64,000 nucleotides of DNA from Escherichia phage FP43, in sequence record MN648445; one strand, written 5' to 3'. Under the pieces are notes generated by a model. The model saw only the letters and a program-made list of their open reading frames with translations. It did no database searches and was not told the DNA's origin. Position numbers and translations under genes: made by a program. Shown piece after piece: positions 11,537 through 53,359 of the stretch. Numbering within the stretch: position 1 is the first letter of the stretch; each line of letters opens with the position of its first letter.

Positions 11537-11566
11537 GTTTACGCTTTCAAATGAGTGTGTTACTAT
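11537..11566 (+). promoter_or_regulatory. early promoter GTTTAC-N18-TACTAT upstream of rnh
   Basis: -35 GTTTAC 11537-11542, -10 TACTAT 11561-11566. Confidence 0.6.
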
Positions 11567-11598
11567 AGACAAGTTGACTAACTGAACAAGAGGTTCAT

Positions 11599-12516
11599 AT
11601 GGATTTAGAAATGATGTTGGATGAAGATTACAAAGAAGGTATTGCACTTGCCGACTTTAGTAACATTGCGTTGGCAGCCGCATTAAACAACTTTGAAGAT
11701 GGCGATAAAATTACTGTTCCAATGGTTCGCCATGTAATATTGAATTCAATTCGTAAAAACGTAGTGATGTTCCGTAAGCAAGGCTATACAAAATTTGTAT
11801 TGTGTATGGATAATGCTACTTCAGGTTATTGGCGACGTGACTTTGCTTACTATTACAAGAAAAATCGCAAAACCGATCGTGAAGCTTCAAAGTGGGATTG
11901 GGAAGGATATTTTACTGCACTCCATCAAGTTGTTGATGAGATTAAGAAATACATGCCATACGTTGTAATGGATATTGACAAGTATGAAGCGGATGACCAT
12001 ATCGGTGTATTAACTAAATATTTGTCATTAGCTGGTCATAAGGTATGTATTGTTGCATCAGATGGTGACTTTACACAATTACACAAATATCCTAACGTTA
12101 AACAGTGGTCGCCACCACAGAAAAAATGGGTTAAAATTAAGAATGGTTCTGCTGAAATTGATTGCATGACTAAAATTCTTAAAGGCGACCGTAAGGATGG
12201 TGTTGCATCTGTTCGAGTTCGTGGTGACTTCTGGTTTACTCGAGTTGAAGGTGAACGAACTCCAAGCATGAAAACATCAATTATTGAAGCAATTGCTAAC
12301 GACCGTTCTCAAGCTGAAGTATTATTAAGTGCAGAAGAATATAAACGGTATCAAGAAAATTTGGTTCTCATTGATTTTGATTATATCCCTGATAATATTG
12401 CTTCAACCATTATAGAGTATTATAACTCGTATAAACAACAACCTAAAGGCAAGATTTATTCATACTTTGTAAAATCTGGTCTTTCTAAATTAACAAGTGT
12501 AATTAATGAATTCTGA
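11599..12516 (+). CDS. rnh: RNase H / 5'-3' flap exonuclease
   Basis: 305 aa as in T4; position between gene 34 and dsbA. Confidence 0.9.
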   Translation: MDLEMMLDEDYKEGIALADFSNIALAAALNNFEDGDKITVPMVRHVILNSIRKNVVMFRKQGYTKFVLCMDNATSGYWRRDFAYYYKKNRKTDREASKWDWEGYFTALHQVVDEIKKYMPYVVMDIDKYEADDHIGVLTKYLSLAGHKVCIVASDGDFTQLHKYPNVKQWSPPQKKWVKIKNGSAEIDCMTKILKGDRKDGVASVRVRGDFWFTRVEGERTPSMKTSIIEAIANDRSQAEVLLSAEEYKRYQENLVLIDFDYIPDNIASTIIEYYNSYKQQPKGKIYSYFVKSGLSKLTSVINEF

Positions 12517-12523
12517 GGTAAAC

Positions 12524-12793
12524 ATGGCTAAGAAAGAAGCAGTTGAATTTAATCAAGATGTGCATGGTGAAGAACTGGCTAAACTAGTCAAGGAAGCTTC
12601 CGATAACAAACTTAAAATTTCTGGTTATAATGAACTGATTAAAGACATTCGTACTCGTGCTAAAGAAGAGCTTGGTGTCGATGGAAAAATGTTTAATCGT
12701 TTGTTAGCTCTTTATCATAAAGATGCTCGTGACCAATTTGAAGCTGAAAACGAAGAGGTAGTCGAGCTTTATGACACAGTTTTCACTAAGTGA
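12524..12793 (+). CDS. dsbA: DsbA double-stranded DNA-binding protein
   Basis: 89 aa from ATG 12524 (SD GAGG); MAKKEAVEF... matches T4 DsbA; track start 12506 is probably too early. Confidence 0.8.
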   Translation: MAKKEAVEFNQDVHGEELAKLVKEASDNKLKISGYNELIKDIRTRAKEELGVDGKMFNRLLALYHKDARDQFEAENEEVVELYDTVFTK

Positions 12794-13109
12794 TATTAAA
12801 CCGGTTGATGAGGCCGGTTTATCTGAACAAGAATTAGCAGTAAAACATGATAAAGATGATATCGCTAAATTGCTTGACCGCCAAGAAAACGGATTCATTA
12901 TCGAATCTATGGTTGAACAATTTGGTATGTCTTATTTAGAAGCAACAACTGCTTTCTTGGAAGAAAATTCTATTCCAGAAACACAATTTGCTAAATTTAT
13001 TCCTACAGGAATTGTTGAAAAAATTACAAGCGAAGCAATTGACGAAAACATGCTTCGCCCATCAGTTGCTCGTGGTGAAAAAACTAATACGTTAGATTTC
13101 TTATTATGA
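12771..13109 (+). CDS. 33: gp33 late transcription co-activator
   Basis: 112 aa; MTQFSLSDIKPVDE... matches T4 gp33. Confidence 0.85.
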   Translation: MTQFSLSDIKPVDEAGLSEQELAVKHDKDDIAKLLDRQENGFIIESMVEQFGMSYLEATTAFLEENSIPETQFAKFIPTGIVEKITSEAIDENMLRPSVARGEKTNTLDFLL

Positions 13110-13759
13110 TTAAAATACGCATGCCTCCTGATGGAGAACGTTATATTAACGGAAAATCGGTATACAAACTATACTTGATGTGCAAACAACATTTTAATGG
13201 TCGGTATGACGTAATCAAATATAACTGGTGCATGCGTGTTTCGGATAATGCGTATCAAAAACGCCGAGATAAATATTTCTTTGAAAAACTAGCAGAGAAA
13301 TATAAATTGAAGGAACTCACCTTGATATTCATAAGCAACTTAGTTGCTAACCAAGACGCATGGATTGGTGAGATATCAGACGCTGATGCATTAGTTTTCT
13401 ATAGGGAATATATTGGACGTCTCAAACAAGCTAAAGAGACGTTTGCCGAAGACGTACGTAACATCTACTATTTCAGTAAGAAAGTTGAAGTTAGTGCGCT
13501 TCAAGAGATATTTGATTATAATAACAACGTTCAGTCGAGCTACATATTCAAATTGCTACAAAGCAATATAATTTCATTTGAAACCTTCTTGTTGTTGGAT
13601 TCATTCTTGAATATTATAGATAAGCATGACGAACTTACTGACAATTTAGTCTGGCAAAATTATTCTACAAAATTAAAGGCATATCGAAAAATACTTCAAA
13701 TCGATGGAAATGCTGCTAAGAAATTGTTCATAGAAACAATCAAATCATGTAAGTATTAA
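13106..13759 (+). CDS. 59: gp59 helicase loader
   Basis: 217 aa as in T4; position between 33 and 32. Confidence 0.85.
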   Translation: MIKIRMPPDGERYINGKSVYKLYLMCKQHFNGRYDVIKYNWCMRVSDNAYQKRRDKYFFEKLAEKYKLKELTLIFISNLVANQDAWIGEISDADALVFYREYIGRLKQAKETFAEDVRNIYYFSKKVEVSALQEIFDYNNNVQSSYIFKLLQSNIISFETFLLLDSFLNIIDKHDELTDNLVWQNYSTKLKAYRKILQIDGNAAKKLFIETIKSCKY

Positions 13760-13788
13760 GCTTTATTTCTTGTGTGTTAAAATTACTT

Positions 13789-13796
13789 TATAAATA
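13789..13796 (+). promoter_or_regulatory. possible late promoter TATAAATA upstream of gene 32
   Basis: Exact TATAAATA on the plus strand about 80 nt upstream of the gene 32 ATG. Confidence 0.4.
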
Positions 13797-13804
13797 AATC
13801 ATAC

Positions 13805-13875
13805 CAGCTACGAGGTATAAGTGTCGTAGCAACCAACTGTAAATAAATTAAATAATCTAAATAAAGGTAAATATA
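13805..13875 (+). promoter_or_regulatory. gene 32 translational operator (pseudoknot-like stem + A/U-rich tract)
   Basis: GCTACGAGG (13807-13815) pairs with TCGTAGC (13824-13830); then AAATAAATTAAATAATCTAAATAAAGG leading into the RBS, as in the T4 gp32 autoregulatory site. Confidence 0.6.
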
Positions 13876-14775: not shown

Positions 14776-14781
14776 TAAATT

Positions 14782-14804
14782 GGGAGACTTCGGTCTCCCT
14801 TTTG
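14782..14804 (+). terminator. rho-independent terminator after gene 32
   Basis: GGGAGAC-TTCG-GTCTCCC + TTTT. Confidence 0.8.
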
Positions 14805-14831
14805 GGCATCTGTAACTTACCTAAAAAAGTT

Positions 14832-14860
14832 GTTTACTTCCTCCAAGGACATGATACTAT
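14832..14860 (+). promoter_or_regulatory. early promoter cassette (PeSL-like)
   Basis: GTTTAC 14832-14837, N17, TACTAT 14855-14860; then CAACAACATGAGGAAA RBS block. Confidence 0.65.
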
Positions 14861-14889
14861 AGACCTATCAACAACATGAGGAAATCAAG

Positions 14890-15276
14890 ATGGAAATCGG
14901 AAAAACTTATATCATTAACCCTTTATTTAAAGATGACTTTGTCCAAGAAGCTCCACGCAATAACAGCCGGATGCTAGATTTGATCGAGAAACATGGCCCA
15001 AGTTTTGTTGTGGAAGAAGATGAATATGATGGCGACGGCTACAACGTAGTATGTGTAACCATGGAAGATGGCACAGAATGTTCTGCTGGCGGTCCGGCAG
15101 AAACTTATTTTGAAATTTATCCTGACGAGTTCAAATACTTCAACGAGGTGACTTTAGAAAAGCCTCAACCTATTGACGAAGGTATAGTTTTAGGTGTAAC
15201 AAAAATTCATTGTGTCGTGGATGAAACTAACGTTGACGAAATCATCGAACTTTTGCAAAAAACTTTTAAAAAGTAG
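14890..15276 (+). CDS. hypothetical protein (128 aa), paralog of 15338..15700
   Basis: Shared IGKTYIINP...HGPSFVV...DEFK.F.EV blocks with the next ORF; own promoter cassette. Confidence 0.6.
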   Translation: MEIGKTYIINPLFKDDFVQEAPRNNSRMLDLIEKHGPSFVVEEDEYDGDGYNVVCVTMEDGTECSAGGPAETYFEIYPDEFKYFNEVTLEKPQPIDEGIVLGVTKIHCVVDETNVDEIIELLQKTFKK

Positions 15277-15314
15277 TATACAAAAAGATAGGACTATGTT
15301 ATAGTAGTCCTATC
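15276..15314 (+). promoter_or_regulatory. early promoter cassette (GTATAC variant) with 10-bp hairpin around the -10
   Basis: GTATAC 15276-15281, -10 TATAGT 15300-15305; inverted repeat GATAGGACTA (15287-15296) / TAGTCCTATC (15305-15314). Confidence 0.55.
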
Positions 15315-15337
15315 AAAACAAATGAGAGGAAATCAAA

Positions 15338-15700
15338 ATGAAAATTGGAAAAACTTATATCATCAATCCAGAATGTAAAGCTATCTTCGCCAATGAATGC
15401 CCACAAAACGCCGATATGCTGGCTTTGATTGAGCTTCATGGTCCTAGTTTTGTTGTAAAAGACATGAACACAGATTATGATGATGATAAATGTGTAACCC
15501 GTGTAACTATGCGAGACGGTACTGAATTCGGTTTTGATGGTAAGCCAGGTTCATATTTTGAGCTTTATGATGATGAGTTTAAACACTTCATCGAGGTATC
15601 TCCAGAGTCTATTTCTAAACAATCACTCATCTTTGAAGTGACTACGGAAAATGCTCGAGATGTGATTGCAGAAATTAAAGAAATTTTTGGAATAAAATAG
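15338..15700 (+). CDS. hypothetical protein (120 aa), paralog of 14890..15276
   Basis: Clear similarity to the upstream ORF; own promoter cassette. Confidence 0.6.
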   Translation: MKIGKTYIINPECKAIFANECPQNADMLALIELHGPSFVVKDMNTDYDDDKCVTRVTMRDGTEFGFDGKPGSYFELYDDEFKHFIEVSPESISKQSLIFEVTTENARDVIAEIKEIFGIK

Positions 15701-15736
15701 TATACAACAGAGTAATGGTGTGATACTATTACTCTG
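15700..15736 (+). promoter_or_regulatory. early promoter cassette (GTATAC variant) with 9-bp hairpin around the -10
   Basis: GTATAC 15700-15705, TACTAT 15724-15729; inverted repeat CAGAGTAAT (15708-15716) / ATTACTCTG (15728-15736). Confidence 0.55.
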
Positions 15737-15765
15737 TCAAAACAAATGAAGCAACGGAGAATAAA

Positions 15766-16014
15766 ATGAAATTACAACGCCAAAGCATTAACGATTCTGA
15801 AGTTAAAGGCAAATGGTACTTCAACATCCTTGATAAAGATGCTGAACTCCTTGAACAAGCTGAAGCAGCTTTACGTGAAATGGGCTGGAATGAAGAATGT
15901 GATGGATGTCCACTTTATGAAGACGGCGAAAGCGCAGGATTCTGGATTCACCACTCCGACGTTGAAATGTTCAAAGCTGATTGGAAAGTTGTTAAAGCAA
16001 ATCTGAGGAAATAA
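15766..16014 (+). CDS. hypothetical protein (82 aa)
   Basis: ATG ORF with its own upstream promoter cassette. Confidence 0.5.
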   Translation: MKLQRQSINDSEVKGKWYFNILDKDAELLEQAEAALREMGWNEECDGCPLYEDGESAGFWIHHSDVEMFKADWKVVKANLRK

Positions 16015-21649: not shown

Positions 21650-22060
21650 ATGAAAGATATTGCCGCCGAATATTCCTTTATTAAATATACAGAATTGGAG
21701 CTATTAGAAGATGCAACAATTAAAACAGTTGATGTCCCTAATAAGAAAAATGTCATATACGCTATTGCTATAGATGACGAACTTGTGTATATTGGTAAAA
21801 CCAAGAATTTAAAGAAACGCATTAACTATTATCGAACAGCCATAAATCGAAAAGACCAGACTTCAGATTCAAGAAAATCACTTATGATTTTGGATGCCTT
21901 AATGCAAGGCAAAAAGGTTGAATTCTGGGCCCGCCAATGTTTTGACCTTTCAGTCACCAACGAACTTGGTTCAATGACCATCGCAACAATGGACCTTGAA
22001 GAACCGCTTTTTATCAAAAAGTTCAACCCGCCTTGGAATATCCAACATAAGAAAAAGTAG
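21650..22060 (+). CDS. denA: endonuclease II (GIY-YIG family)
   Basis: 136 aa; VIYAIAIDDELVYIGKT...KKRINYY GIY-YIG motif; matches T4 DenA. Confidence 0.9.
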   Translation: MKDIAAEYSFIKYTELELLEDATIKTVDVPNKKNVIYAIAIDDELVYIGKTKNLKKRINYYRTAINRKDQTSDSRKSLMILDALMQGKKVEFWARQCFDLSVTNELGSMTIATMDLEEPLFIKKFNPPWNIQHKKK

Positions 22061-22089
22061 TTTACACACCACAAGGATTGTGGTATAAT
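22060..22089 (+). promoter_or_regulatory. early promoter upstream of rnlA
   Basis: GTTTAC 22060-22065, N18, TATAAT 22084-22089. Confidence 0.65.
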
Positions 22090-22106
22090 TTAAAAAAACT
22101 AACTGA

Positions 22107-23240
<1,134 letters not shown>

Positions 23241-23242
23241 TG

Positions 23243-23272
23243 GTTTACAAACACCAAGGAAGGTGTTACTAT
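23243..23272 (+). promoter_or_regulatory. early promoter upstream of alc
   Basis: GTTTAC 23243-23248, N18, TACTAT 23267-23272. Confidence 0.6.
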
Positions 23273-23302
23273 GGCTTTTATCAATAACACGAGGAGAAAA
23301 TT

Positions 23303-23803
23303 ATGAATATGCAATTGATTACTAATGATATGGTCGTAACCGCTTTTGGAGACACAACTGACGGAATCCGAGTCTTTAAGAAAGGACGTCCAGTTGGTTA
23401 TCTTACTGACCTACGTGTTACACTGGCCAAAAATCTTAAAAAGAAAGTAAAACAAAAAGAGTATTCCACCCGATACGCTGAAGAGAAACGTGAAGCAATG
23501 CCGGAAGCAGTTAATGCCATGGTAGAATTTCTTCAAAACAATTTGACTAAATATGACGCTAATGTTTTCGTTAATATTAGTCAACCAAACGTACATATCG
23601 CAGGTATAAAATTCTACATTATTTGCGACCCTCTTACCGACAAATTCAACCGCCTCGGAATTTCAAGTCCATATCATACAGCAGAAGAGTTGTGTGTATT
23701 GTTTGAATCGTACAAAATCCAGTGTGATGGTTTGAAAACCGTTCTTATCAATGGATTATCCCGAGATGAAATCATTGAGATTATTAAAACATGCTTAAAG
23801 TAA
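23303..23803 (+). CDS. alc: Alc inhibitor of host transcription
   Basis: 166 aa (T4 167); position after rnlA. Confidence 0.8.
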   Translation: MNMQLITNDMVVTAFGDTTDGIRVFKKGRPVGYLTDLRVTLAKNLKKKVKQKEYSTRYAEEKREAMPEAVNAMVEFLQNNLTKYDANVFVNISQPNVHIAGIKFYIICDPLTDKFNRLGISSPYHTAEELCVLFESYKIQCDGLKTVLINGLSRDEIIEIIKTCLK

Positions 23804-24434: not shown

Positions 24435-24649
24435 CTAAAGAACAGCATGAATACATTAAAGGGCTTATCTATGAATCTGAAATGGCGGCTATGATTTATG
24501 GGCGCCAGATTCAACGATTAGAATCTTTGCCTCCGACTAATGACCGCTTGTTAGTTCAGTCTCGTGCTAATCTGAAAAATGAATATCAGAATAAGTGGGC
24601 AGTAGCGACTAAAGCTCTTCACGAGTATATTGAATCTTTAGTAAAATAG
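24425..24649 (+). CDS. hypothetical protein (74 aa)
   Basis: ATG ORF overlapping the upstream stop. Confidence 0.45.
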   Translation: MPMTKEQHEYIKGLIYESEMAAMIYGRQIQRLESLPPTNDRLLVQSRANLKNEYQNKWAVATKALHEYIESLVK

Positions 24650-24678
24650 TTTACAAACTCTCAGGAGCAGAGTATAAT
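24649..24678 (+). promoter_or_regulatory. early promoter cassette
   Basis: GTTTAC 24649-24654, N18, TATAAT 24673-24678; flanking AGGAGC/GCTCCT inverted repeat. Confidence 0.6.
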
Positions 24679-24706
24679 GCTCCTATGGATAATTGAGGAA
24701 ATCTAA

Positions 24707-25005
24707 ATGAAAACATTACTAGAGAATTACATCAAACGGTCTGATGAGTATATTGATATCTGCCGTGGAATGTCACTTGGCAATTATGACAAAGATGCAG
24801 CAAAGGCACTAGATGAAGCAGGTAAAGCTCTTCGTAAAGCTGCTAAAGAAAAAGGGTTGGATTTGCAACAACTCAAAAGTCATATGATTAAATTTATTTC
24901 TTCAAACGTTAGAAGTACGTCAATTAATAAAAACGTTGCTGAAATTAATAAAGACCGGCGCGAGCATAACATTCGTATTCTTGAAATTTTCTTAGGAATA
25001 AAATA

Positions 25006-25006
<1 letters not shown>
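24707..25006 (+). CDS. hypothetical protein (99 aa)
   Basis: ATG ORF preceded by promoter cassette and RBS GAGGAAA. Confidence 0.5.
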
Positions 25007-26092
<1,086 letters not shown>

Positions 26093-26496: not shown

Positions 26497-26772
26497 ATGT
26501 TCCCAACTTATTCTGAAATTGTAAAGGTAGTCTTCAGTCAGATTATTGCTAATAATATGTTTGAAGTGCTTGATAATGCAGCCGAACTCAGAGTTCATGC
26601 TCAACTAACTCATGTACTCAATGCTTTGCTCCCAGACCAAGTAGATTCTATTGCTATTACTCTTCTCCCTGGGTCTGCACACGTCATAGTGGTATTTGAT
26701 CTTGACGGCGATTTAGTTATCCAATGTGATATCAATTTCGGTACACAAAAAATTGAATGCAAAGCAATTTAA
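26497..26772 (+). CDS. hypothetical protein (91 aa)
   Basis: ATG ORF with short spacing to neighbours. Confidence 0.45.
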   Translation: MFPTYSEIVKVVFSQIIANNMFEVLDNAAELRVHAQLTHVLNALLPDQVDSIAITLLPGSAHVIVVFDLDGDLVIQCDINFGTQKIECKAI

Positions 26773-26774
26773 TG

Positions 26775-26813
26775 GTTTACAACATGGTGGAGTTGTGATA
26801 CTATAACTCTACC
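26775..26813 (+). promoter_or_regulatory. early promoter cassette (PeSL-like)
   Basis: GTTTAC 26775-26780, N18, TACTAT 26799-26804; imperfect 9-bp inverted repeat 26786-26794 / 26805-26813. Confidence 0.6.
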
Positions 26814-26832
26814 AACAAATGAGGAAATAGAA

Positions 26833-27069
26833 ATGCTAAGTGAAAACCCAATTACAGTACACGAATTTCAGATTAAAGTAAAAGAATTTGCTCAAGCACT
26901 CATCAATAAAGTGTCTGAACGTTTCCAAGATGCAACATTACGAGTTATTCAAGAATCTCCACGTTCTTTTCTCATAATCGTTAATCCTAAAGATGGTGAC
27001 CAAATTACTAATCTTAAATTAGGCAGTGATGGTCTTGTTGAAGCAACTCGAGTATATGGAACACTATAA
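26833..27069 (+). CDS. hypothetical protein (78 aa)
   Basis: ATG ORF preceded by promoter cassette and RBS GAGGAAA. Confidence 0.5.
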   Translation: MLSENPITVHEFQIKVKEFAQALINKVSERFQDATLRVIQESPRSFLIIVNPKDGDQITNLKLGSDGLVEATRVYGTL

Positions 27070-27187
27070 TGAGAGCTATCTCATTACTATCGAGAATGGT
27101 CATAAATCTGAGCACTACCAACTTAGCCTATCTAATCCGGTTAAAGGTATTGTTGAATCAGAATCTGTTTATATCTCCTAAGGATTG
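27056..27187 (+). CDS. possible small ORF (43 aa)
   Basis: ATG 27056 overlapping the upstream stop; fills the 120-nt gap before the DAHP synthase gene; below the ORF-track size cutoff; weak RBS. Confidence 0.2.
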
Positions 27188-27189
27188 TT

Positions 27190-28182
27190 ATGTTACCTGT
27201 CATCAGAAAACTTATTTCTCCAAAAGAACTGGCTGAGATTATTCCTTTGTCGGAAGCTTACGCATCACAAGTGGCTTCTCATCGCGAACAAGTTAATTCG
27301 ATTATGAACGGTGAAGACCCACGCAAACTTATTGTTGTAGGTCCTTGTTCAATTCATGACCCTATTGCTGCTGTTGAATACGGCAAACGTCTGGCTGAAC
27401 TTCAAACTCGTCTTCCTAATGTTCTGTTAGTGATGCGCGTTTATTTTGAAAAGCCTCGAACTACCGTAGGTTGGAAAGGTCTTGTAAATGATCCATATCT
27501 TGACGGAAGTTTTGATATGAACCACGGTCTTATAGTTGCACGAACATTGTGTCGTAAACTTCTACGTATGGGACTTCCATTAGCAACTGAAGTATTAGAC
27601 CCATTCACGATTAAGTATCTTTCTGGTATTTTCTCATGGGTTGCTATTGGCGCCCGTACGACTGAAAGTCAGACACATCGTGAAATTGCTTCGGGTCTAC
27701 CGATGTGCGTAGGCTTCAAGAACGCAACCAATGGTTCTATTAAAGTAGCTACAGACGCGATGTATAGTGCCGCCTGGCCTCATCGGTATATGGGTATGGA
27801 CGTCGATGGTACTGTAGGCATTGTTGAAGCTGAAGGTAATCAGAATACGCATATCGTATTGCGTGGCGGGACCAACGGCCCGAACTATCATTCTTCTGAT
27901 ATTCAAGAAGCTTCTAACAAAGCAAGGGCAGTAGGTCTGAATCATTATGTAATGGTTGACTGTAGCCATGCAAACGCTGATGGGCATTATAGCAATCAAA
28001 TTGGTATTGGTAAAAATTTAGCAGCTAATGATTTGGTCAAAGGAATTATGATAGAATCATTCCTACATGAAGGAAATCAAAAAATTTCCGATAATATGTC
28101 CTATGGCGTTTCCGTTACCGATGCGTGCATCAGTTGGGAACAAACTAAAGAGCTGTTAACTTATATTAATAAGGTTCAATAA
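27190..28182 (+). CDS. 3-deoxy-D-arabino-heptulosonate-7-phosphate (DAHP) synthase, class I (AroG/F/H-like)
   Basis: 330 aa; VVGPCSIHD and VYFEKPRTTVGWKGL and AIGARTTESQTHRE motifs align with E. coli AroG as recalled. Confidence 0.85.
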   Translation: MLPVIRKLISPKELAEIIPLSEAYASQVASHREQVNSIMNGEDPRKLIVVGPCSIHDPIAAVEYGKRLAELQTRLPNVLLVMRVYFEKPRTTVGWKGLVNDPYLDGSFDMNHGLIVARTLCRKLLRMGLPLATEVLDPFTIKYLSGIFSWVAIGARTTESQTHREIASGLPMCVGFKNATNGSIKVATDAMYSAAWPHRYMGMDVDGTVGIVEAEGNQNTHIVLRGGTNGPNYHSSDIQEASNKARAVGLNHYVMVDCSHANADGHYSNQIGIGKNLAANDLVKGIMIESFLHEGNQKISDNMSYGVSVTDACISWEQTKELLTYINKVQ

Positions 28183-29824: not shown

Positions 29825-30118
29825 GTTTTAGGTGATTCGCTACCTTAGTGCGGCTAGAAAATCGAGGAGCCGTCGAACTGTCTGATTAATGATTTGCGAA
29901 TCATTATAGTTTTAAGACCCCGGCAGTTTTACGGTGTACCTCTTGAATGTATTTTATACTATCACGCGTCAGAAAAAGGTTATCTGTCTAAGTCGTGGTT
30001 GGTATGATGACGGGTTTATGGTTATCCTGTCGTTAAATATCCAAAACCTATGTTCCCCTTGAGGGCTTGCGCAGGCAATGTCAATAAGTCCTGCATTTTC
30101 ATTTAAAGAGAATTTATA

Positions 30119-30303: not shown

Positions 30304-30326
30304 GGGAGACTTCGGTCTCCCTTTTG
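30304..30326 (+). terminator. rho-independent terminator after the small basic ORF
   Basis: GGGAGAC-TTCG-GTCTCCC + TTTTG. Confidence 0.8.
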
Positions 30327-30357
30327 TGCGTTTAGGGCAGAAAAAGTTTAAAAAGAT

Positions 30358-30386
30358 GTTTACTCTCCTGTAGGATGTGTTACTAT
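30358..30386 (+). promoter_or_regulatory. early promoter cassette
   Basis: GTTTAC 30358-30363, N17, TACTAT 30381-30386. Confidence 0.6.
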
Positions 30387-30428
30387 AGACTTGTACCATC
30401 TAATCAATAAAACAACCTGGAGAACAAA

Positions 30429-30797
30429 ATGAAAATCAATCTGAACTCATACATCAAATGTAAAGACCACGACGGTTATAAAGCTATCGAAATTAAAGAA
30501 TTCCAGTGGATGTTATACAAAGAGCAATTTGAGATCGTAAGTTGTATGACCCCTGAAGGTCCTTCAAATGATTTCTCTTGGAAAATTGTGTTAGCAAACT
30601 TTTTCACAGGTGACACATACGAATTAAAAACTATTATTACAGGTAAAATTCGCTCAGAAACATATGTTGACGAAGAAACTGGTTACTCTGAAGATGTCAC
30701 ATGGTATCAAAATGGACGCATTACAGCAGATAACCTGATCGAAAAAATGAAAGCCAAAGGTGTTTTAAATTTAGACAATTGGATTAAAGTTGCATAA
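30429..30797 (+). CDS. hypothetical protein (122 aa)
   Basis: ATG ORF with own promoter cassette and RBS. Confidence 0.55.
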   Translation: MKINLNSYIKCKDHDGYKAIEIKEFQWMLYKEQFEIVSCMTPEGPSNDFSWKIVLANFFTGDTYELKTIITGKIRSETYVDEETGYSEDVTWYQNGRITADNLIEKMKAKGVLNLDNWIKVA

Positions 30798-30801
30798 AAC
30801 A

Positions 30802-30841
30802 GTTTACTTTGGTACAGGTTATGTTATTATAGACCTGTACC
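30802..30841 (+). promoter_or_regulatory. early promoter cassette with 9-bp hairpin around the -10 (PeSL-like)
   Basis: GTTTAC 30802-30807, TATTAT 30825-30830; inverted repeat GGTACAGGT (30811-30819) / ACCTGTACC (30833-30841). Confidence 0.6.
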
Positions 30842-30871
30842 AACAAACAACTTAAACATCTGGAGAATAAA

Positions 30872-31237
30872 ATGAACTACATCAACTTCGAACGCAAATA
30901 TGTTTCTAACGGTATCGCTGGTTCTTCTGAAGTTATTTGCTTATGGAAACATAAAAATGGTTCAGTATGTGAAATTGAGCAGTATATGACTCCTAATTAC
31001 GTTTATATGCGATTTGAAAATGGCATCACGGTTTCAATCACGATGGAAGGTTCCAACTTCAAAATTGCATTAGATGACGATTTCCGTCAGCGTGATTTAG
31101 GTACTCATCCTTGCTGGAATGGTGATAATCGTAAACTTCTGGTTAAAACTTGGATTCGTCATATCCTGAGTAACCGAGCTAAACCTGAACATCTCGAAGC
31201 AATCTTTGATGTAGTTCTTAATGAATTCGATATCTAA
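30872..31237 (+). CDS. hypothetical protein (121 aa)
   Basis: ATG ORF with own promoter cassette and RBS GGAGAA. Confidence 0.55.
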   Translation: MNYINFERKYVSNGIAGSSEVICLWKHKNGSVCEIEQYMTPNYVYMRFENGITVSITMEGSNFKIALDDDFRQRDLGTHPCWNGDNRKLLVKTWIRHILSNRAKPEHLEAIFDVVLNEFDI

Positions 31238-31272: not shown

Positions 31273-31887
31273 ATGTTTAAAGTTAATACTTTTTATAAAA
31301 TGAATTTTAAAAATGGGGATATTACTCCACGCCTTAAAAACATGTTCTCATATGACCTTATCGAGCCTTTTGAAGTTTTAGAAGTTACTGATGCCGGCTC
31401 AGTTTGTGAAATTAGAACTTCTGAAGGTAAAATTTATCAGGCAGGTGTCGGTAAATTCAGTAATTGTTTTACTTTAATATTCTCGACTGATTTAGATGAG
31501 CATTTTATTGAATGTCCTAACCCTAAGGTCTATGAAGTTCCACATCAAGAAATTAAGAAAAATGGACCGCACGAATATACGAAGGTTGAAACTCCTCACG
31601 GCGTGATGTGGCGTCATAACTCTCCTTTTGGAAGTAAAGGAACATTTGCTCAACTGGCTAAGCCCTACGACGATGAAAAATATGTAGTAGTCCTTTTATC
31701 TGAACAGGGTACTCAAGACCGTGGATGTCAACGAAGTGGTTTACTAAGTGAACTCGAAGCTCATAACCGAGCACGTGAATTCGTTGAGAAAAATCCTGGT
31801 TCTGAAGCTCTAGTCATGAAAGCAATTACTCAATATATCACTGCTCAACCTGTTGTTCATCCGGTAGAAATTAATTTCATTAAGTAG
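31273..31887 (+). CDS. hypothetical protein (204 aa)
   Basis: ATG ORF with RBS GAGGAAA. Confidence 0.55.
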   Translation: MFKVNTFYKMNFKNGDITPRLKNMFSYDLIEPFEVLEVTDAGSVCEIRTSEGKIYQAGVGKFSNCFTLIFSTDLDEHFIECPNPKVYEVPHQEIKKNGPHEYTKVETPHGVMWRHNSPFGSKGTFAQLAKPYDDEKYVVVLLSEQGTQDRGCQRSGLLSELEAHNRAREFVEKNPGSEALVMKAITQYITAQPVVHPVEINFIK

Positions 31888-31917
31888 TTTACATCCAAGG
31901 ACGGATTAGAGTATAAT
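31887..31917 (+). promoter_or_regulatory. early promoter
   Basis: GTTTAC 31887-31892, TATAAT 31912-31917 (19-nt spacer). Confidence 0.5.
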
Positions 31918-31943
31918 GATTTCTTTACTAAGTGGAAAAAAAT

Positions 31944-32141
31944 ATGAAATTTTTAATAGCACAAACAGTCCAATTAAAAGGTGTTGGAATTCCTGGGGTG
32001 ATTTTTAAAGTTCTCCCTGAATTTAAAACCAGCGCTGGAATTATCAATGAAGCGTATGCTGTTCAATGGGTTGATTGGACTTCTGACATACGTATGGGTA
32101 AAGAGTTATCTCCTATTAAAGGGTTGAAACATGTTGAATAA
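31944..32141 (+). CDS. hypothetical protein (65 aa)
   Basis: ATG 31944; the track start 31932 is a GTG. Confidence 0.4.
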   Translation: MKFLIAQTVQLKGVGIPGVIFKVLPEFKTSAGIINEAYAVQWVDWTSDIRMGKELSPIKGLKHVE

Positions 32142-35618: not shown

Positions 35619-37706
35619 ATGTCTGAACAATTAAATGAAGTGTTTGAATCTGAAGGCAGTCTTCCTGTCGTCAATTTGAACCCTAAAGCTAAAGTTCCAC
35701 AAGTCTGGAAAATTGGTGATATCGATACAAATATTGTAGTTCGTTTATTCTCTTACCTTTCCGAAGGCGACGCTGTAAAACAAGTTAAACTTGGCGACAA
35801 ATACGCTCATGTTGTTATTATGAGTCTGTCTGAAAAGGGTAATCTCGCTGAATTGAAAAATGGCCTTGGTCCTGCTCCTATTGATGCAATCAACACCATT
35901 TTCAATACAGTGTATGAACAGGTTAAAGCTCTTCGTATGGATGCAGTTCTGTTCCGATTCCCTACCAAGAAATTGAAAGGACGTGGACAACAACTTCAAA
36001 CTCTTCTTGCTCGTCTAGTTTCTACTAAAACCGGTGGTCGTTTTAAAGTATTGTCTGCAATGTATCAATTCACAGGTAAACACACCTATGTGATGATGGT
36101 TCGTAAAAATGCCAACATTGAAGATATTAAAGGCATCCCTAACATTAACACAGAGTTGTACACGAAAGTAGATTCTGATGTTGGCGAAGTTTATGTGAGT
36201 AAAAAGACTGGTGAAAAGGTCACCAAAGAAACGGCTATCGCTGGTTCTATTGCTGCTGTAGAAGAAAAACGTAAAGATAAGCCTGTTATTGCTCGTACTA
36301 AAATTTCTCGTCGTGCTATTGCAGCAAGTCAATCTTTAGAAGCTGACCGACAAGAAGGTGAGTTATTCCAGAAATACGAAAATTCTGCTAAAGAAGTTAG
36401 TGGCCCGGCTACAGCTGAATTACTTCCTGAAGCATATGAAATTGTACTAGCCCAAGCATCGTCCACAGCAAAAGGCACTTTAGTTGCTGATATCGAAAAT
36501 AAGATTTATAATCGTATTGATGAATCCTTTAAATTTGCCGATGAAGTTTCTTATGGTAGTGTTATTAAGCCGACTTTAGAAAAGTTTGCTAAGAAAATTA
36601 AAACTGAAAAAACAACATCTGTTAAAGCATTATCTGCTTTTGTTGAAGCTGCAAATGAAATTGCAGACTCTATTAAAGACGAATGGTTTGAAGATTTTAG
36701 ACGTGATAATTTCCAACTGCCTGACGACGTTTTAGCTGAAGTATCTGAAAGAACTTGGAAACAACGTAAATCAGCGTTCTTGTCTAATGTGATGTATACT
36801 TATGCCCGAGAATCGGCTAGAGGCACCTTTAATATAACAATGAATCGGGACCCTAAACAATACTCTGTTGCTGAAAAACGAGCTATTCGTGAATATGCCT
36901 CTTCTGCGTATACCGATATCAATAATATGTTGTTAGGTCGTTATAAACCGGATTTTTATGATGTTGCGGATGAAGATGAAGTTAAACGCGCTATTGATGG
37001 TCTTGATTCGGCGTTTTTAAATGGAGACCGTTTACCTGAAGGACTAACGTTATATAGAGCTCAGTCTATCAGAATGCCTATTTACGAAGCAATGGTTAAA
37101 AATAAGGTATTCTACTTCAGAAACTATGTTTCCACTTCACTAGCTCCTATTATTTTCGGTGGGTTTAAAGAGAACGTTGCCCTTGGACTTGCTCCTGAAG
37201 AAGTTCGCAAAGAGCTTAACATTGACAATAATGACGAAGGTGTTACTATTTCTCCTAGTCAAGTAAGAACAGCTATGCATGCACCAGAACAAATCCGTGT
37301 TAACGTTGGATGGGCTATTGATGGCGCCCATAAAGTTAACGTGATTTATCCAGGACAGTTGAGTAATCACCCTAATGAGCAAGAAATTATTTTGCCTAGA
37401 GGCATTCTCTTGCAGATAAATAAAATTACAGATGCGTCATCTGATACTGGTGCAGGTTTAGAATCCAACCTTAAATTTATTCAAGCTGAAGTTATGTCCT
37501 CAGACCAGTTGGATGAAGCCGTCATTTATGATGGTGATGTTCTCATGGAAACAGGCGAGGTGGTTGCTATGACGGGTGAAATCGAATCAGATGAGCCGGT
37601 ATCGTTCTCCTCATTTGTAGAAAAAACTAGTGCACCTAAAGGTTTGAAATTGTTAGCATCTTTAATGGATTTAGAATCAGTTCCGTTTAAATTTGTCCAA
37701 GGATAG
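35619..37706 (+). CDS. alt: Alt ADP-ribosyltransferase (packaged)
   Basis: 695 aa (T4 about 682); position after ligase, before gene 54. Confidence 0.8.
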   Translation: MSEQLNEVFESEGSLPVVNLNPKAKVPQVWKIGDIDTNIVVRLFSYLSEGDAVKQVKLGDKYAHVVIMSLSEKGNLAELKNGLGPAPIDAINTIFNTVYEQVKALRMDAVLFRFPTKKLKGRGQQLQTLLARLVSTKTGGRFKVLSAMYQFTGKHTYVMMVRKNANIEDIKGIPNINTELYTKVDSDVGEVYVSKKTGEKVTKETAIAGSIAAVEEKRKDKPVIARTKISRRAIAASQSLEADRQEGELFQKYENSAKEVSGPATAELLPEAYEIVLAQASSTAKGTLVADIENKIYNRIDESFKFADEVSYGSVIKPTLEKFAKKIKTEKTTSVKALSAFVEAANEIADSIKDEWFEDFRRDNFQLPDDVLAEVSERTWKQRKSAFLSNVMYTYARESARGTFNITMNRDPKQYSVAEKRAIREYASSAYTDINNMLLGRYKPDFYDVADEDEVKRAIDGLDSAFLNGDRLPEGLTLYRAQSIRMPIYEAMVKNKVFYFRNYVSTSLAPIIFGGFKENVALGLAPEEVRKELNIDNNDEGVTISPSQVRTAMHAPEQIRVNVGWAIDGAHKVNVIYPGQLSNHPNEQEIILPRGILLQINKITDASSDTGAGLESNLKFIQAEVMSSDQLDEAVIYDGDVLMETGEVVAMTGEIESDEPVSFSSFVEKTSAPKGLKLLASLMDLESVPFKFVQG

Positions 37707-37740
37707 TTTACAAACACATGGATGTGTGATACTATCATCC
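37706..37740 (+). promoter_or_regulatory. early promoter cassette (PeSL-like)
   Basis: GTTTAC 37706-37711, N18, TACTAT 37730-37735; GGATG/CATCC inverted repeat flanks the -10; then CAACAACATGAGGAAA. Confidence 0.6.
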
Positions 37741-37764
37741 CATCAACAACATGAGGAAAACGTT

Positions 37765-38058
37765 ATGAAATCTATGCTTCGCTTTAATGGTCAAGAACTA
37801 GTAGTTGAAGATGCTATCCCAGCGGATGATGTTTTTAACGAAGCTGTGATTGACGAATTGAATCGAGTATTCCCGGGTGCATTCCATATTGCTATGGAAC
37901 CTCTTAAAAACTTTCGTGACCCTGAGCACACTGATCAAATTTTTATCGGTGTACTGACAGGTCATTTAGAAACAGAGGTACCAATGGTCGTATTAGTTAA
38001 ATACTCTAAAGATGATACTCCATTCCGAGCACCAGCATTTCTTTCATTCCGTAAATAA
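37765..38058 (+). CDS. hypothetical protein (97 aa)
   Basis: ATG 37765 with promoter cassette and RBS; the track start 37693 overlaps alt. Confidence 0.5.
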   Translation: MKSMLRFNGQELVVEDAIPADDVFNEAVIDELNRVFPGAFHIAMEPLKNFRDPEHTDQIFIGVLTGHLETEVPMVVLVKYSKDDTPFRAPAFLSFRK

Positions 38059-50311: not shown

Positions 50312-50317
50312 TCGTAA

Positions 50318-50340
50318 GGGGCTTCGGCCCCTTTCTTCGT
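50318..50340 (+). terminator. rho-independent terminator after hoc
   Basis: GGGGC-TTCG-GCCCC + TTTCTTCGTTTTT. Confidence 0.75.
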
Positions 50341-50412
50341 TTTTAAAGCATACAAAACACAACTTGAGATTGATGTATATAATGGCACAAACCAAATAAT
50401 ACGGGATCGATT

Positions 50413-50607
50413 ATGAGAGCTGAAGTTGAAGTTTATACATTACATGAGGCGGGATTTTCATTCGTAGAAATTGCTCAAAAAATTGGTTTACAACCTAAAG
50501 AAGTTGGATTACTATGGACTAAAGCCGAGACAGCTCGGTCAAAGTTTAAAGCAAAAGAAAAAGTTGTATACCGTAAACGTTTGATTAACAAAAAGGTGAA
50601 GAAATGA
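50413..50607 (+). CDS. hypothetical small basic protein with HTH-like segment (64 aa)
   Basis: GFSFVEIAQKIGLQPKEVG resembles a helix-turn-helix; basic C-terminus. Confidence 0.45.
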   Translation: MRAEVEVYTLHEAGFSFVEIAQKIGLQPKEVGLLWTKAETARSKFKAKEKVVYRKRLINKKVKK

Positions 50608-50855: not shown

Positions 50856-50857
50856 TA

Positions 50858-50883
50858 TGCTTTACATTTTTTGATGGTATAAT
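50858..50883 (+). promoter_or_regulatory. middle promoter upstream of rnlB
   Basis: TGCTTTA 50858-50864, 13-nt gap, TATAAT 50878-50883. Confidence 0.5.
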
Positions 50884-50974
50884 GAATCTAGGTTCTATCC
50901 ATTCAAATTAAACATCGGGTCGGAGATAGAGTCTCTGCTAATTATTTTGATATTATTATTTATAATGGTGATTT

Positions 50975-51973
50975 ATGTTTAAGAAATACAGCAGTCTTGA
51001 AAACCACTACAACTCTAAGTTTATTGAAAAACTCTACACTAATGGTTTGACTACTGGTGTTTGGGTAGCACGTGAGAAAATCCACGGGACCAACTTCTCG
51101 TTAATAATTGAACGTGACAATGTCACATGCGCCAAGCGCACAGGCCCTATTCTTCCAGCAGAAGATTTTTATGGTTATGAAATCGTACTCAAGAAGTATG
51201 ATAAAGCTATTAAAGCCGTTCAGGAATTCATGTACACAGCTCGAGCCGTATCATATCAAGTATTCGGTGAATTCGCTGGTGGTGGAATCCAGAAAGGTGT
51301 TGACTACGGTGAAAAAGATTTTTATGTGTTCGATATCCTTATCAATACAGAAAGTGGTGATAATACGTATTTGACCGATTACGAAATGCAAGATTTCTGT
51401 AATGAATTCGGTTTTAAAATGGCACCAATGCTTGGTCGTGGAACATTTGATTCTCTTATCATGATTCCAAATGACCTTGATTCCGTCTTAGCCGCTTATA
51501 ACGCTACGGCATCGGAAGACCTTGTCGAAGCAAATAATTGCGTATTTGATGCTAATGTTATTGGTGATAATACTGCAGAAGGTTATGTTCTGAAGCCTTG
51601 TTTCCCTAAATGGCTGCCAAACGGTACTCGTGTAGCGATTAAGTGCAAGAACTCTAAATTCAGTGAAAAGAAAAAGTCTGATAAGCCTATTAAAACTCAG
51701 GTTCAATTAACTGAAATTGACAAAAACTTGCTTGATGTTCTAGCTTGTTATGTTACACTAAATCGTGTTAACAATGTGATTTCTAAGATTGGGACAGTAA
51801 CGCCAAAAGATTTCGGTAAAGTGACTGGATTGACTGTTAAAGATATTCTAGAAGAAACTTCTCGTGAAGGTATTGTATTAACATCATCCGATGACCCGAG
51901 TCTTGTTAAGAAAGAATTAATTAGAATGGTGCAAGATGTTCTGCGTCCTGCATGGATTGAATTAGTATCATAA
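50975..51973 (+). CDS. rnlB: RNA ligase 2
   Basis: 332 aa (T4 334); KIHGTN adenylation motif. Confidence 0.85.
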
Positions 51974-51975
51974 CA

Positions 51976-52002
51976 AAAAAAGGGACCTTACGGTCCCTTT
52001 TT
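51976..52002. terminator. bidirectional terminator between rnlB (+) and gene 24 (-)
   Basis: AAAAAGGGACC-TTAC-GGTCCCTTTTT. Confidence 0.8.
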
Positions 52003-52005
52003 CGT

Positions 52006-53289
52006 TTATTCATCTATAATAATTTTAGGCAATTTAACACCGAGTAAAACAGACAAGTCTGAACGTCCTGCCATTTTATCCATGTCCCCGCCATCAATTA
52101 CTCTCGCTTCTTTTTCATCTTTTGCTACTGTGTAAGGATTTGCTGATAAAGCATATCTAACCAATAAACCTATAGACGGTTGTAAGCTTTCCGGATCAAC
52201 TACAACTTTAAATGCACCGACATGTTCCGGGTCGTCTAAATCCATTCCTTCAGTGTATGGAGCATAAAAGATGGACCCTACAATCTCTTTTTCGCCGATA
52301 TTTTCTACAACACCCACAATAACATAATCTAACGGACTGTTGGTATCGCAGTAAAGAGGTAATCCATTTGCCAAGAATCCATAAGCATTTTGTGAAAGAT
52401 ACTTATCATCTTCCGGCTTATGTTTTAACCAACCAGAAGCAGCAAGAATAGCAGCTGCACGAGCTGAAGCTACGCAAAACGTTGCAGTATAAGTTGACTC
52501 TTTTTGGATATGCGAAACCATTTCACACACCATTCGATATAACGAACGACCTGCTTCCGGAGCAGATGCATAACTCAAGTCAATAAATCCGGTGTCAGTA
52601 ATTCCAGTAACTTTATAACGTTTAGATACAGTAATTAAAGACTGAAGAATATCTTTATTAATTTCATCAGCCATTTCAGTAGCAAGCAAATCTTCTAAGA
52701 AGTTAGGGGCATCAAATCCATTCGCTTCTAAATCTTGCGCTAATTCAACCGTGAGGCCGGTTTTAAGTTTACGAGATTTGACTGAAGTTTGCCATTTATT
52801 AATCTGGAATCTTGCATCAGAAATTTCGCTACCAGAGCTTTCAAATTTGCTTGTTACCGCTGCATCTGAAAATAGCCGTACCTTTAAATGAACGACCGCA
52901 ATCTGAAGAGCTAATTCTAGATCACTTTCCTGAATATCTGCAAACGGCGTATCTTCTAACACTTTATAGACGATATTATTATATTTGAAAAAATCACCTT
53001 TATTTAGTGTGACTTTTGATTCTTCTGTGAGCTCAGTAATTTTTTCTCGGTCTACATATCCAGCTTCGCCTGCATAAGTAGCACCAGTTTTAAATGTTAA
53101 TTCGTTGTCTGGGTTAAGATATTTAATACCATAAAAAGCAGCAACAGGTTGATTAGTTCTTTGTGTTGCCACAATGTCAGAATATATTAATTTAGTCGTA
53201 GCGCGAGTCAAAGCAACGAGATTTGGGCGACCGATTGAGTTGCTAGTAGACGTTGTAGATTCACGCAATAATTTTTGGATTTTACTCAT
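52006..53289 (-). CDS. 24: gp24 head vertex protein
   Basis: 427 aa as in T4; similar to gp23. Confidence 0.9.
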   Translation of the reverse strand: MSKIQKLLRESTTSTSNSIGRPNLVALTRATTKLIYSDIVATQRTNQPVAAFYGIKYLNPDNELTFKTGATYAGEAGYVDREKITELTEESKVTLNKGDFFKYNNIVYKVLEDTPFADIQESDLELALQIAVVHLKVRLFSDAAVTSKFESSGSEISDARFQINKWQTSVKSRKLKTGLTVELAQDLEANGFDAPNFLEDLLATEMADEINKDILQSLITVSKRYKVTGITDTGFIDLSYASAPEAGRSLYRMVCEMVSHIQKESTYTATFCVASARAAAILAASGWLKHKPEDDKYLSQNAYGFLANGLPLYCDTNSPLDYVIVGVVENIGEKEIVGSIFYAPYTEGMDLDDPEHVGAFKVVVDPESLQPSIGLLVRYALSANPYTVAKDEKEARVIDGGDMDKMAGRSDLSVLLGVKLPKIIIDE

Positions 53290-53315
53290 TGCATTTTTCC
53301 TTATGTGATATAGAT

Positions 53316-53323
53316 TATTTATA
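53316..53323 (-). promoter_or_regulatory. late promoter for gene 24
   Basis: Minus-strand TATAAATA about 27 nt upstream of the gene 24 ATG. Confidence 0.65.
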
Positions 53324-53329
53324 AAGATT

Positions 53330-53359
53330 GTTTACAACGTATTTGGTATGTGATACTAT
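53330..53359 (+). promoter_or_regulatory. early promoter cassette between genes 24 and 23
   Basis: GTTTAC 53330-53335, N18, TACTAT 53354-53359. Confidence 0.6.

Follow-up and report, generated by a model that had tools for sequence, protein, structure and literature searches.

Fifteen copies of an early-promoter unit stand on the plus strand of a 64,000-nucleotide (nt) stretch of Escherichia phage FP43 (sequence record MN648445), the whole of which was analysed and is called the window below. Each complete copy is a cassette of about 75–90 bp that carries a promoter, a leader, a Shine-Dalgarno sequence and a start codon, and five copies have a strong or moderate hairpin over the -10 box. We consider it probable that these early promoters behave as cassettes, with RNA hairpins acting as insulators and recombination between the repeated units shuffling small open reading frames (ORFs). 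The most useful new fact to emerge is that one type of cassette is found nearly unchanged in four phage groups.

In the mechanism proposed, host RNA polymerase would fire the cassettes as soon as infection begins, and transcripts would start about 7 nt past the -10 box. Read-through transcripts arriving from upstream would fold a hairpin of 7–13 bp between the upstream stop codon and the next ribosome-binding site, and this RNA hairpin may insulate neighbouring early units from each other, by acting as an attenuator or pause site, or by protecting the 3' end after cleavage in the leader. Units or leader blocks that are alike and repeated along the genome could then recombine, and small early ORFs would be added, deleted or swapped together with their expression signals; now and then, a cassette alone would land in another phage. 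Shuffling of ORFs by recombination between promoter-early stem-loops (PeSLs) is the idea of Arbiol and Comeau (PMC2839356, PMC4122927).

A repeated early-promoter unit

A two-block position matrix, built without the site at 50486 and scanned over both strands of the window, retrieves 15 sites at 27–40 bits, all on the plus strand and all pointing in the early-gene direction, and everything else on either strand stays below 10 bits; 50486 itself scored 29.6 bits despite its absence from the training set. These sites comprise the 13 motif copies listed by a previous sequence-only reading of this DNA, all of which were recovered, and two that it had missed, at 1043 (upstream of asiA) and at 50486 (inside gp24.3). 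The pattern GTTTAC-N17/18-TAYWAT alone has 12 matches in the window, all on the plus strand, for 0.14 expected from shuffles, while the GTATAC variant brings in 15700 and a looser spacer pattern brings in 31887. A generic sigma-70 scan was not enriched (72 promoter-like sites for 64 expected, and 31 for 28 in a second run), and the signal is therefore a phage-specific consensus.

The position matrix gives the consensus tttnaaAAAaTaGTTTACAa ... nTgTGnTAcTATagnc, the -10 half of which may also be written TgTGnTAcTAT. The unit begins with an A-rich UP-like tract, followed by a G-TTTAC(a) -35 box, a 17-bp spacer ending in TGn and a TAYWAT -10 box; downstream come a pyrimidine-rich discriminator, an unstructured CA-rich leader of 20–35 nt, a GAGG or GGAG Shine-Dalgarno sequence, and the ATG. 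Measured from TTTACN, 11 of the 15 sites have a spacer of 17 bp, three of 16 bp and one of 18 bp. The end of the -10 box lies 26–42 nt from the ATG at 14 sites, which also have both the upstream AT-rich tract and the 3' Shine-Dalgarno sequence with its start codon; the distance is 88 nt at 50486, a promoter core without the conserved leader and Shine-Dalgarno block.

The sequence-only reading had given the -10 box as TACTAT or TATAAT and the spacing as N17/18, and this describes most sites, except that 15276 combines GTATAC with a TATAGT -10 box, 30802 has TATTAT, and 31887 has an N19 spacer before its TATAAT. It had also noticed a further block shared by several copies, which corresponds to the discriminator (TACTAT-AGACCT) followed by the CA-rich leader and the Shine-Dalgarno sequence; the exact form of this block, AACATGAGGAAA, is restricted to 14832 and 37706, and relaxed forms occur at 15276 and 26775.

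What kind of promoters are these? Nolan et al. 2006 (PMC1524935) predicted early promoters (Pe) of phage RB69 that are orthologs of 13 of the 15 sites, and matrix matches in RB69 fall exactly on the early promoters listed in Additional file 3 of that paper. For the remaining two, 15700 and 31887, the segments that hold them are missing from RB69, and with them any counterpart. Site 26775 is also the ortholog of the T4 'early promoter Pe133295 between cd.2 and cd.3' of the T4 GenBank record, and the suggestion that the motifs are T4-type early promoters is thus borne out. The window consensus agrees with the 'UP/-35/TGn/-10' architecture of T4 early promoters (PMC2988021), and equals the PST/T4 PeSL promoter TTTACW-N17-TAYWAT (PMC4122927). 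The assignment of these sites as putative sigma-70-dependent early promoters of an RB69-like T4-type phage is well supported by these comparisons, and for RB69 has already been published as a prediction.

The sites are listed below, each named in the text by the position of its -35 box, with the corresponding RB69 promoter where there is one.

1029..1109, plus strand: cassette upstream of asiA (GTTTAC 1043, TACTAT 1067, ATG 1107), no hairpin; RB69 Pe:160217
11523..11601, plus strand: cassette upstream of rnh, in the divergent intergenic region beside gene 34, no significant hairpin; RB69 Pe:149309 (window 11537)
14818..14892, plus strand: cassette upstream of the first FRD2 paralog (ORF 14890-15276), leader ATCAACAACATGAGGAAATCAAGATG; RB69 Pe:146013 (window 14832)
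15262..15340, plus strand: cassette with GTATAC/TATAGT upstream of the second FRD2 paralog, hairpin arms 15287-15296 and 15305-15314, -10 box shared between loop and 3' arm; RB69 Pe:145300 (window 15276 type)
15686..15768, plus strand: cassette with GTATAC/TACTAT upstream of frd.1 (DUF5417), hairpin arms 15707-15716 and 15728-15737 (window 15700)
22046..22118, plus strand: cassette upstream of rnlA, 7-bp spacer stem 22068-22074 / 22078-22084; RB69 Pe:139277 (window 22060)
23229..23305, plus strand: cassette upstream of alc, 6-bp spacer stem 23250-23255 / 23262-23267; RB69 Pe:138093 (window 23243)
24635..24709, plus strand: cassette upstream of non-T4 ORFs at 24707-25197 and of pseT, 7-bp stem 24663-24669 / 24678-24684 with the -10 box in the loop; RB69 Pe:136687 (window 24649)
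26761..26835, plus strand: cassette between cd.3 and cd.2, hairpin 26785-26814 with 13 pairs including G·U; RB69 Pe:134561 (window 26775)
30344..30431, plus strand: cassette upstream of gene 30.8, without an internal hairpin; RB69 Pe:132117 (window 30358)
30788..30874, plus strand: cassette with TATTAT upstream of gene 30.7, hairpin arms 30809-30819 and 30833-30843; RB69 Pe:131670 (window 30802)
31873..31946, plus strand: cassette upstream of a 65-amino-acid ORF (ATG 31944) without Pfam match, no significant hairpin; lies within a segment replaced in RB69 (window 31887)
37692..37767, plus strand: cassette upstream of alt.-3, only a weak 5-bp spacer stem; RB69 Pe:125323 (window 37706)
50472..50515, plus strand: promoter core inside the ORF gp24.3, next ATG 88 nt on (gp24.2, then rnlB); RB69 Pe:112451 (window 50486)
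53316..53392, plus strand: cassette before an 89-amino-acid ORF wedged between late genes 24 and 23; RB69 Pe:109605 (window 53330)

Downstream of most cassettes stand conserved early genes of T4 (asiA, rnh, rnlA, alc, cd.2, 30.8, 30.7, alt.-3, frd.1 and frd.2), and only the cassettes at 24649, 31887 and 53330 precede ORFs without a confident Pfam family, so that the earlier statement that the cassettes bound most of the small ORFs outside the T4 core was too strong.

A side observation concerns the upstream edge of the cassettes. In six of them, the TAG stop codon of the upstream gene shares its G with the -35 box (15274-15276, 15698-15700, 22058-22060, 24647-24649, 31885-31887 and 37704-37706, the last being the stop codon of alt), and the A-rich UP tract encodes the last residues of the upstream proteins, which end for example in ...KKK or ...FKK before the stop. 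The cassette appears to supply the stop codon of the upstream gene in these six cases.

Hairpins in the promoter region

RNA folding of 55 nt per site, with 200 shuffles for z-scores, yields hairpins at 15276 (-16.6 kcal/mol, z -4.8), 15700 (-17.0 kcal/mol, z -3.9), 26775 (-16.9 kcal/mol, z -4.5) and 30802 (-19.7 kcal/mol, z -4.7), and a moderate stem at 24649 (-12.2 kcal/mol, z -1.6); folding was not individually significant at the other sites. Taken as a set, the sites have free energies below the genomic background (Mann-Whitney p = 0.0013), and perfect stems of at least 7 bp occur at five of the 15, as opposed to 2.8% of random 40-nt windows. The five strong or moderate hairpins have their 5' arm in the spacer and their 3' arm over the discriminator and the first bases to be transcribed, the -10 box being located in the loop or in the 3' arm. 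Stems of 6–7 bp confined to the spacer are present at 22060 and 23243, and the stem-loops located upstream of 14832 and 30358 are canonical terminators with T-runs. A stem-loop within or adjacent to the promoter is thus found at nine of the 15 sites (five over the -10 box, two in the spacer, two upstream terminators); it is weak at 37706, and none was found at 1043, 11537, 31887, 50486 or 53330. The hairpins given as examples in the sequence-only reading (15287-15314, 15708-15736 and 30811-30841) are correctly placed, but its count of at least six -10 boxes in hairpin loops comes down to five, and about six is reached only if the spacer stems are included.

The five hairpins over the -10 box were also considered as intrinsic terminators, a role that was rejected on sequence, as no U-run follows any of the five on the plus strand.

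The distribution of the hairpins is associated with expected read-through from upstream. They are absent from all four cassettes that should receive no such read-through, namely the divergent 11537 and 53330 and the post-terminator 14832 and 30358, whereas among the ten cassettes placed directly behind another gene, seven have one. Complementarity between spacer and discriminator is seen in about half of the copies that follow a co-directional gene without a gap.

These structures are also conserved outside the window. Three promoters at orthologous sites in T4, those of frd.2/frd.1, cd.3/cd.2 and 30.8/30.7, have hairpins as well, folding at -15 to -16 kcal/mol, and the stem at T4 position 129918 is the same as that of 30802. 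Within the 15700 stem, an A-T pair of the window is replaced by G-C in LH01 and in T4, and stems of the 15276 type change from GGACT/AGTCC to GGGCT/AGCCC, with G·T intermediates. Covariation was measured within the TATAGT hairpin family only, the stems of other copies lying at different offsets, and this family comprised 28 distinct copies collected with the arms left unconstrained in the search; a search of IMG/VR with an exact pattern gave 14 loci, most of them Carettavirus-like and Mosigvirus-like, which served only to add further copies. In the 28 copies, 93.5% of cells are paired, two pairs display AU/GU/GC series, and 11 cells have changed on both sides, compared with 4.8±1.6 in shuffles, none of the 500 shuffles reaching 11. 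G·U and A·C combinations number 19 vs 5, a bias which points to folding of the sense-strand RNA. Taken together, the hairpins are old (since they are common to T4) and maintained by selection, probably as RNA.

A separate case is that of the rnlA promoter, where 22060-22089 was compared with T4 (locus L025, 15500-15525, minus strand). T4 has at this place a middle-type promoter, in which a MotA box (TGCTT) replaces the GTTTAC -35 box and the spacer hairpin CCACA...TGTGG is kept, a comparison that reads as a change of promoter class on a conserved hairpin scaffold.

Spread of one cassette type among phages

The 53-nt cassette at 15276 occurs in 337 phage records at 1384 places, with 7–9 copies per genome in Mosigvirus, 6–7 in Carettavirus, and one copy each in several Tequatrovirus and Vequintavirinae genomes. 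In these alignments, identity extends from the -35 box to the leader and the flanks are unrelated. Cassettes of this type stand at non-orthologous sites in SH7, in phiE142 and in the ndd region of RB69, and in Carettavirus the joints are found at the hairpin: phiE142 has the arrangements A-hairpin-X and B-hairpin-Y, a relative has A-hairpin-Y, and others have C-hairpin-X. Such sequence comparisons provide clear evidence that the 15276-type cassette has been exchanged horizontally among four phage groups.

The Vequintavirinae phage W70 is particularly informative in this respect. When 1.5 kb of W70 was used as query, 266 records matched only positions 798-891, that is, the cassette (about 90 bp), and among the matches listed these cassette-only records are T4-like phages throughout. 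Homologs of W70_90, the gene downstream of the cassette, occur in Phapecoctavirus, Rhizobium, Klebsiella, Erwinia and other phages, and none in a T4-like phage among the matches listed and tallied; joint movement of cassette and gene into Vequintavirinae was rejected on these grounds. No 'empty site' was found in relatives of W70, only six records having the flanking DNA in common. The cassette thus seems to have reached the W70 lineage without a gene. This is direct comparative evidence for gene-free travel of a promoter cassette, which bears on how phages rewire the expression of their accessory genes.

A bolder version of this conclusion would be that the cassette of about 80–90 bp, and especially the TAGGACTA...TATAGTAGTCCTA type, is a regulatory element that carries no gene and moves on its own, both within genomes and from Straboviridae to Vequintavirinae, through a targeted and structure-dependent mechanism (for example a phage nuclease or recombinase recognising the hairpin or cruciform) and not through passive short-homology recombination. 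We regard this stronger claim as doubtful.

Insertions and deletions in the clade

Do the cassettes mark the boundaries of insertions and deletions, as the sequence-only reading had anticipated? The closest genomes to the window (megablast, query 11000-33000) belong to Mosigvirus, the RB69-like T4-type coliphages, with a best identity of about 96%; 144 phage genomes cover at least 80% of this query, and LH01, Mizar, ATK47 and APCEc01 are the best-matching Mosigvirus. Indels were counted between 11.5 and 38 kb against eight relatives, which gave about 13 events. Only three of them touch a cassette, all in the gene 32-frd region, which exists in several arrangements (only 20 of 714 records cover at least 80% of it).

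In RB69, a 251-bp ORF (ORF245c) is inserted at 14867-14880, with leader repeats on both flanks. Another example is the FRD2b module, made of the FRD2b ORF (ORF 15338-15700, ORF120) and cassette 15700, which in the window and in LH01 separates the 15276 hairpin from the frd.1 leader. A 15276-type hairpin is joined directly to the frd.1 leader in RB69, APCEc01, ATK47 and phage 55, and the same module breakpoint is present in ZQ3, WFL6982 and FL18; RB69, APCEc01, ZQ3, WFL6982 and FL18 have neither this ORF nor cassette 15700. Two 16-nt repeats, at 15310 and 15734, 424 nt apart, bracket the module exactly, and recombination between them would yield the deletion that is observed; the predicted mini-circle formed from 15310-15325 and 15734-15749 would measure 424 bp. 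The FRD2 paralogs, with 55% amino-acid identity, each have their own cassette, and the proposal that cassettes bound this paralog pair is confirmed, down to the cassette-bounded indel of one of its members with cassette 15700.

The other events are of a different nature. Homing-endonuclease or intron insertions are found at 13105, 17480, 18101, 19471 and 21119, and a 1.6-kb insertion at 20385; the remaining indels involve the aroG-like gene (27085-28178), short segments at 29825-30000 and a replacement at 31280-32127, and none of them ends in a promoter; those that are not endonuclease or intron insertions lie at gene junctions without a promoter. Several indel boundaries are located at Shine-Dalgarno/ATG junctions.

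The homing-endonuclease and intron insertions of the relatives, all of which are missing from the window, lie between genes 33 and 59 and in or beside td, nrdA and nrdB. They were seen in phage 55 (locus L003, 8111-8781), ZQ3 (L022, 25098-26012), WFL6982 (L023, 23716-24396 and 27361-28453) and FL18 (L024, 7077-7522, 10623-12231 and 12912-13505). Such elements explain more of the recent indels of the early region than promoter cassettes do. The aroG-like gene encodes an AroG-like DAHP synthase (phospho-2-dehydro-3-deoxyheptonate aldolase) of 330 amino acids, at 27190-28182 between cd.2 and cd; it is found in most relatives, RB69 lacks 27085-28178 with a 19-nt overlap at the junction, and no promoter cassette was seen at the ends of the gene.

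Weighing the alternatives

Several observations weigh against the view that the cassettes carry insulating RNA hairpins and serve to shuffle small ORFs. Of the 12 cassettes compared, nine keep their position in all the relatives that cover them, about 10 of the about 13 indels are unrelated to promoters, and indel ends at gene junctions are also expected from selection for viable recombinants, whatever the mechanism. That the promoters are active in this phage is predicted from orthology and from the consensus. The hairpins over the -10 box fall outside the canonical form of an intrinsic terminator, and the RNA role given to them here is a proposed one. The covariation signal comes from few variable positions and from related sequences, and the ATK47 copy of the 26775 stem carries one uncompensated change; finally, the association between hairpins and read-through is based on 14 sites (Fisher p ~0.035). 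The model is tempered accordingly: in this clade the cassettes are mostly stable, and homing endonucleases are behind more of the recent indels.

The simplest alternative is that these are ordinary, vertically inherited early promoters, alike through selection for an optimal RNA-polymerase site, that their hairpins are by-products of the AGGA spacer and the TCCT discriminator, and that nothing here is mobile. The fixed positions just mentioned fit this explanation, as do the sharing of several cassettes with T4 and the lack of relation between most indels and cassettes, and short AGG...CCT complementarity is seen even in copies without a hairpin. However, at least 35 nt, including the arbitrary stem TAGGACTA, are identical in unrelated contexts across four phage groups, and the cassette is the only DNA that W70 has in common with T4-like phages. 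Recombinant joints fall at the hairpin, stems that differ in sequence keep their pairing through compensatory changes, and the cassette-bounded indels and cross-family copies expected of shuffled cassettes have already been shown in part. We therefore judge ordinary vertical inheritance unlikely as a full explanation.

Another possibility is that the inverted repeats act in DNA, as cruciforms that open the promoter or draw nucleases of the T4 endonuclease VII type, thus creating recombination hot spots, or as palindromic sites bound by a dimeric regulator that would switch early promoters off. The -10 box would be exposed in the loop of a cruciform, a crossover in RB49 has been localised to the loop of a stem-loop (Arbiol et al., PMC2839356), and the Carettavirus joints at the hairpin could be viewed in the same light. 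The excess of G·T over A·C on the sense strand argues otherwise, since a cruciform would turn each G·T into a C·A mismatch on the other strand, and hairpins are missing exactly where no upstream transcript would cross. The arm sequences vary among copies, which argues against a site for a single sequence-specific protein. An action in DNA is accordingly rated as very improbable.

Lastly, the hairpins might terminate late or antisense transcripts entering the early regions on the opposite strand, and the minus strand of the 15287-15314 hairpin is indeed followed by TTTTTGTATA and scored as terminator-like in a scan, but this T-run exists in the 15276 copy only (not at 15700, 26775, 30802 or 24649) and the G·U bias favours plus-strand RNA, which leaves this idea with hardly any likelihood.

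Terminators, cleavage sites and gene map

An intrinsic terminator with a UUCG tetraloop, GGGAGAC-TTCG-GTCTCCC-TTTT, has four copies in the window, of the form GGGAGACTTCGGTCTCCC(T/A)TTT.

6457-6478, minus strand: UUCG terminator
14782-14803, plus strand: UUCG terminator after gene 32, 28 nt upstream of cassette 14832
30304-30325, plus strand: UUCG terminator, second exact copy of GGGAGACTTCGGTCTCCCTTTT, 32 nt upstream of cassette 30358
53666-53687, minus strand: UUCG terminator, bidirectional, serving gene 23 on one strand and the 89-amino-acid early ORF on the other

The second of these forms a composite terminator-promoter with cassette 14832, and the two composites of this kind, at 14832 and 30358, are 80% identical over about 150 nt. 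The terminators also behave as reused cassettes, and the UUCG terminator is reused after early and late genes alike.

The strong cleavage consensus of the endoribonuclease RegB, GGAGRAYARAA (PMC3014915), has only three matches in the window, all in Shine-Dalgarno regions of cassettes.

15756-15766, plus strand: RegB-type site of frd.1, GGAGAATAAAA
30419-30429, plus strand: RegB-type site of gene 30.8
30862-30872, plus strand: RegB-type site of gene 30.7

These matches predict early inactivation of the frd.1, 30.8 and 30.7 mRNAs by RegB. With the 15 promoters, their leaders and the reused terminator, they make up an early-transcription map for the phage.

The gene map, drawn from annotated relatives, starts with asiA, after which come the holin and the tail fibre genes 38-34, on the minus strand, and the early cluster from rnh to alt.-3, on the plus strand (11.6–38 kb); beyond alt.-3 stand baseplate and head late genes, with a few plus-strand ORFs among them. 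The ORFs at 30429 and 30872 were considered as a second paralog pair and rejected (BLASTP E = 7), as they correspond to genes 30.8 and 30.7.

Two sites show sequences of a different kind. In cassette 30358, the segment AGACTTGTACC (30381-30398) is a near copy of the 3' arm of the 30802 hairpin, AGACCTGTACC (30825-30843), and no matching 5' arm is present for it; this looks like a chimeric or decayed hairpin cassette. At 50486-50540, a G+C-rich hairpin, GCCGAGACAGCTCGGTC, lies 9 nt past the -10 box with no start codon nearby, at a site that is conserved in RB69.

Comparison with known systems

The T4 and RB69 early promoters of Nolan et al. (PMC1524935) resemble those of the window in their GTTTAC at -36 to -31, their A-rich positions -40 to -44, a GT-rich TGn ahead of the -10 box, cytosines from -3 to -1, and their orientation with the early genes. 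Hairpins, palindromes and shuffling are nowhere mentioned in that paper (0 occurrences).

The lambdoid morons, composed of a promoter, a gene and a terminator, offer another parallel. The 53330 unit is alike in being self-contained between late genes, with its promoter, its 89-amino-acid ORF and its bidirectional terminator. The regulatory sequences of morons are, however, no vehicles of mobility and need not be repeated, whereas the window cassette itself supplies the homology (contrast drawn from PMC2839356).

The closest match is with the PeSLs, described in RB49/phi1 (Arbiol et al. 2010, PMC2839356) and in PST/T4 and nt-1/KVP40 (Comeau et al. 2014, PMC4122927), which likewise consist of an A/T-rich tract, a sigma-70-type promoter, a stem-loop, and a 3' Shine-Dalgarno sequence with an ATG. 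In the RB49 layout their stem-loop stands between the two boxes or covers the -10 box, in the PST/T4 layout it stands just upstream of the promoter, and both layouts are present in the window. PeSLs and window cassettes both have many copies in early regions, and indels or replacements end inside PeSLs and, in the gene 32-frd region, inside window cassettes. Unlike PeSLs, the stems over the -10 box in the window are A/U-rich, with neither poly-G/poly-C nor a U-tract, so that the terminator part of what defines a PeSL is at most putative in their case. Most window copies precede conserved T4 genes and are positionally stable, and the preferential association of PeSLs with ORFans in hyperplastic regions was not found here; one type, on the other hand, has been copied outside T4-like phages, into Vequintavirinae.

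The description of these units as PeSL-like mobile elements therefore stands for the composite layout, for hairpins kept by selection, for the shuffling of one hyperplastic region at cassettes and for the spread of the 15276 type, and not for general mobility, a terminator role or a bias towards ORFans. No description of PeSLs in RB69-like phages was found in the literature searched, and Arbiol et al. 2010 do not mention RB69. The kind of element is one already described, and its extension to RB69-like phages is partly supported by the present comparison.

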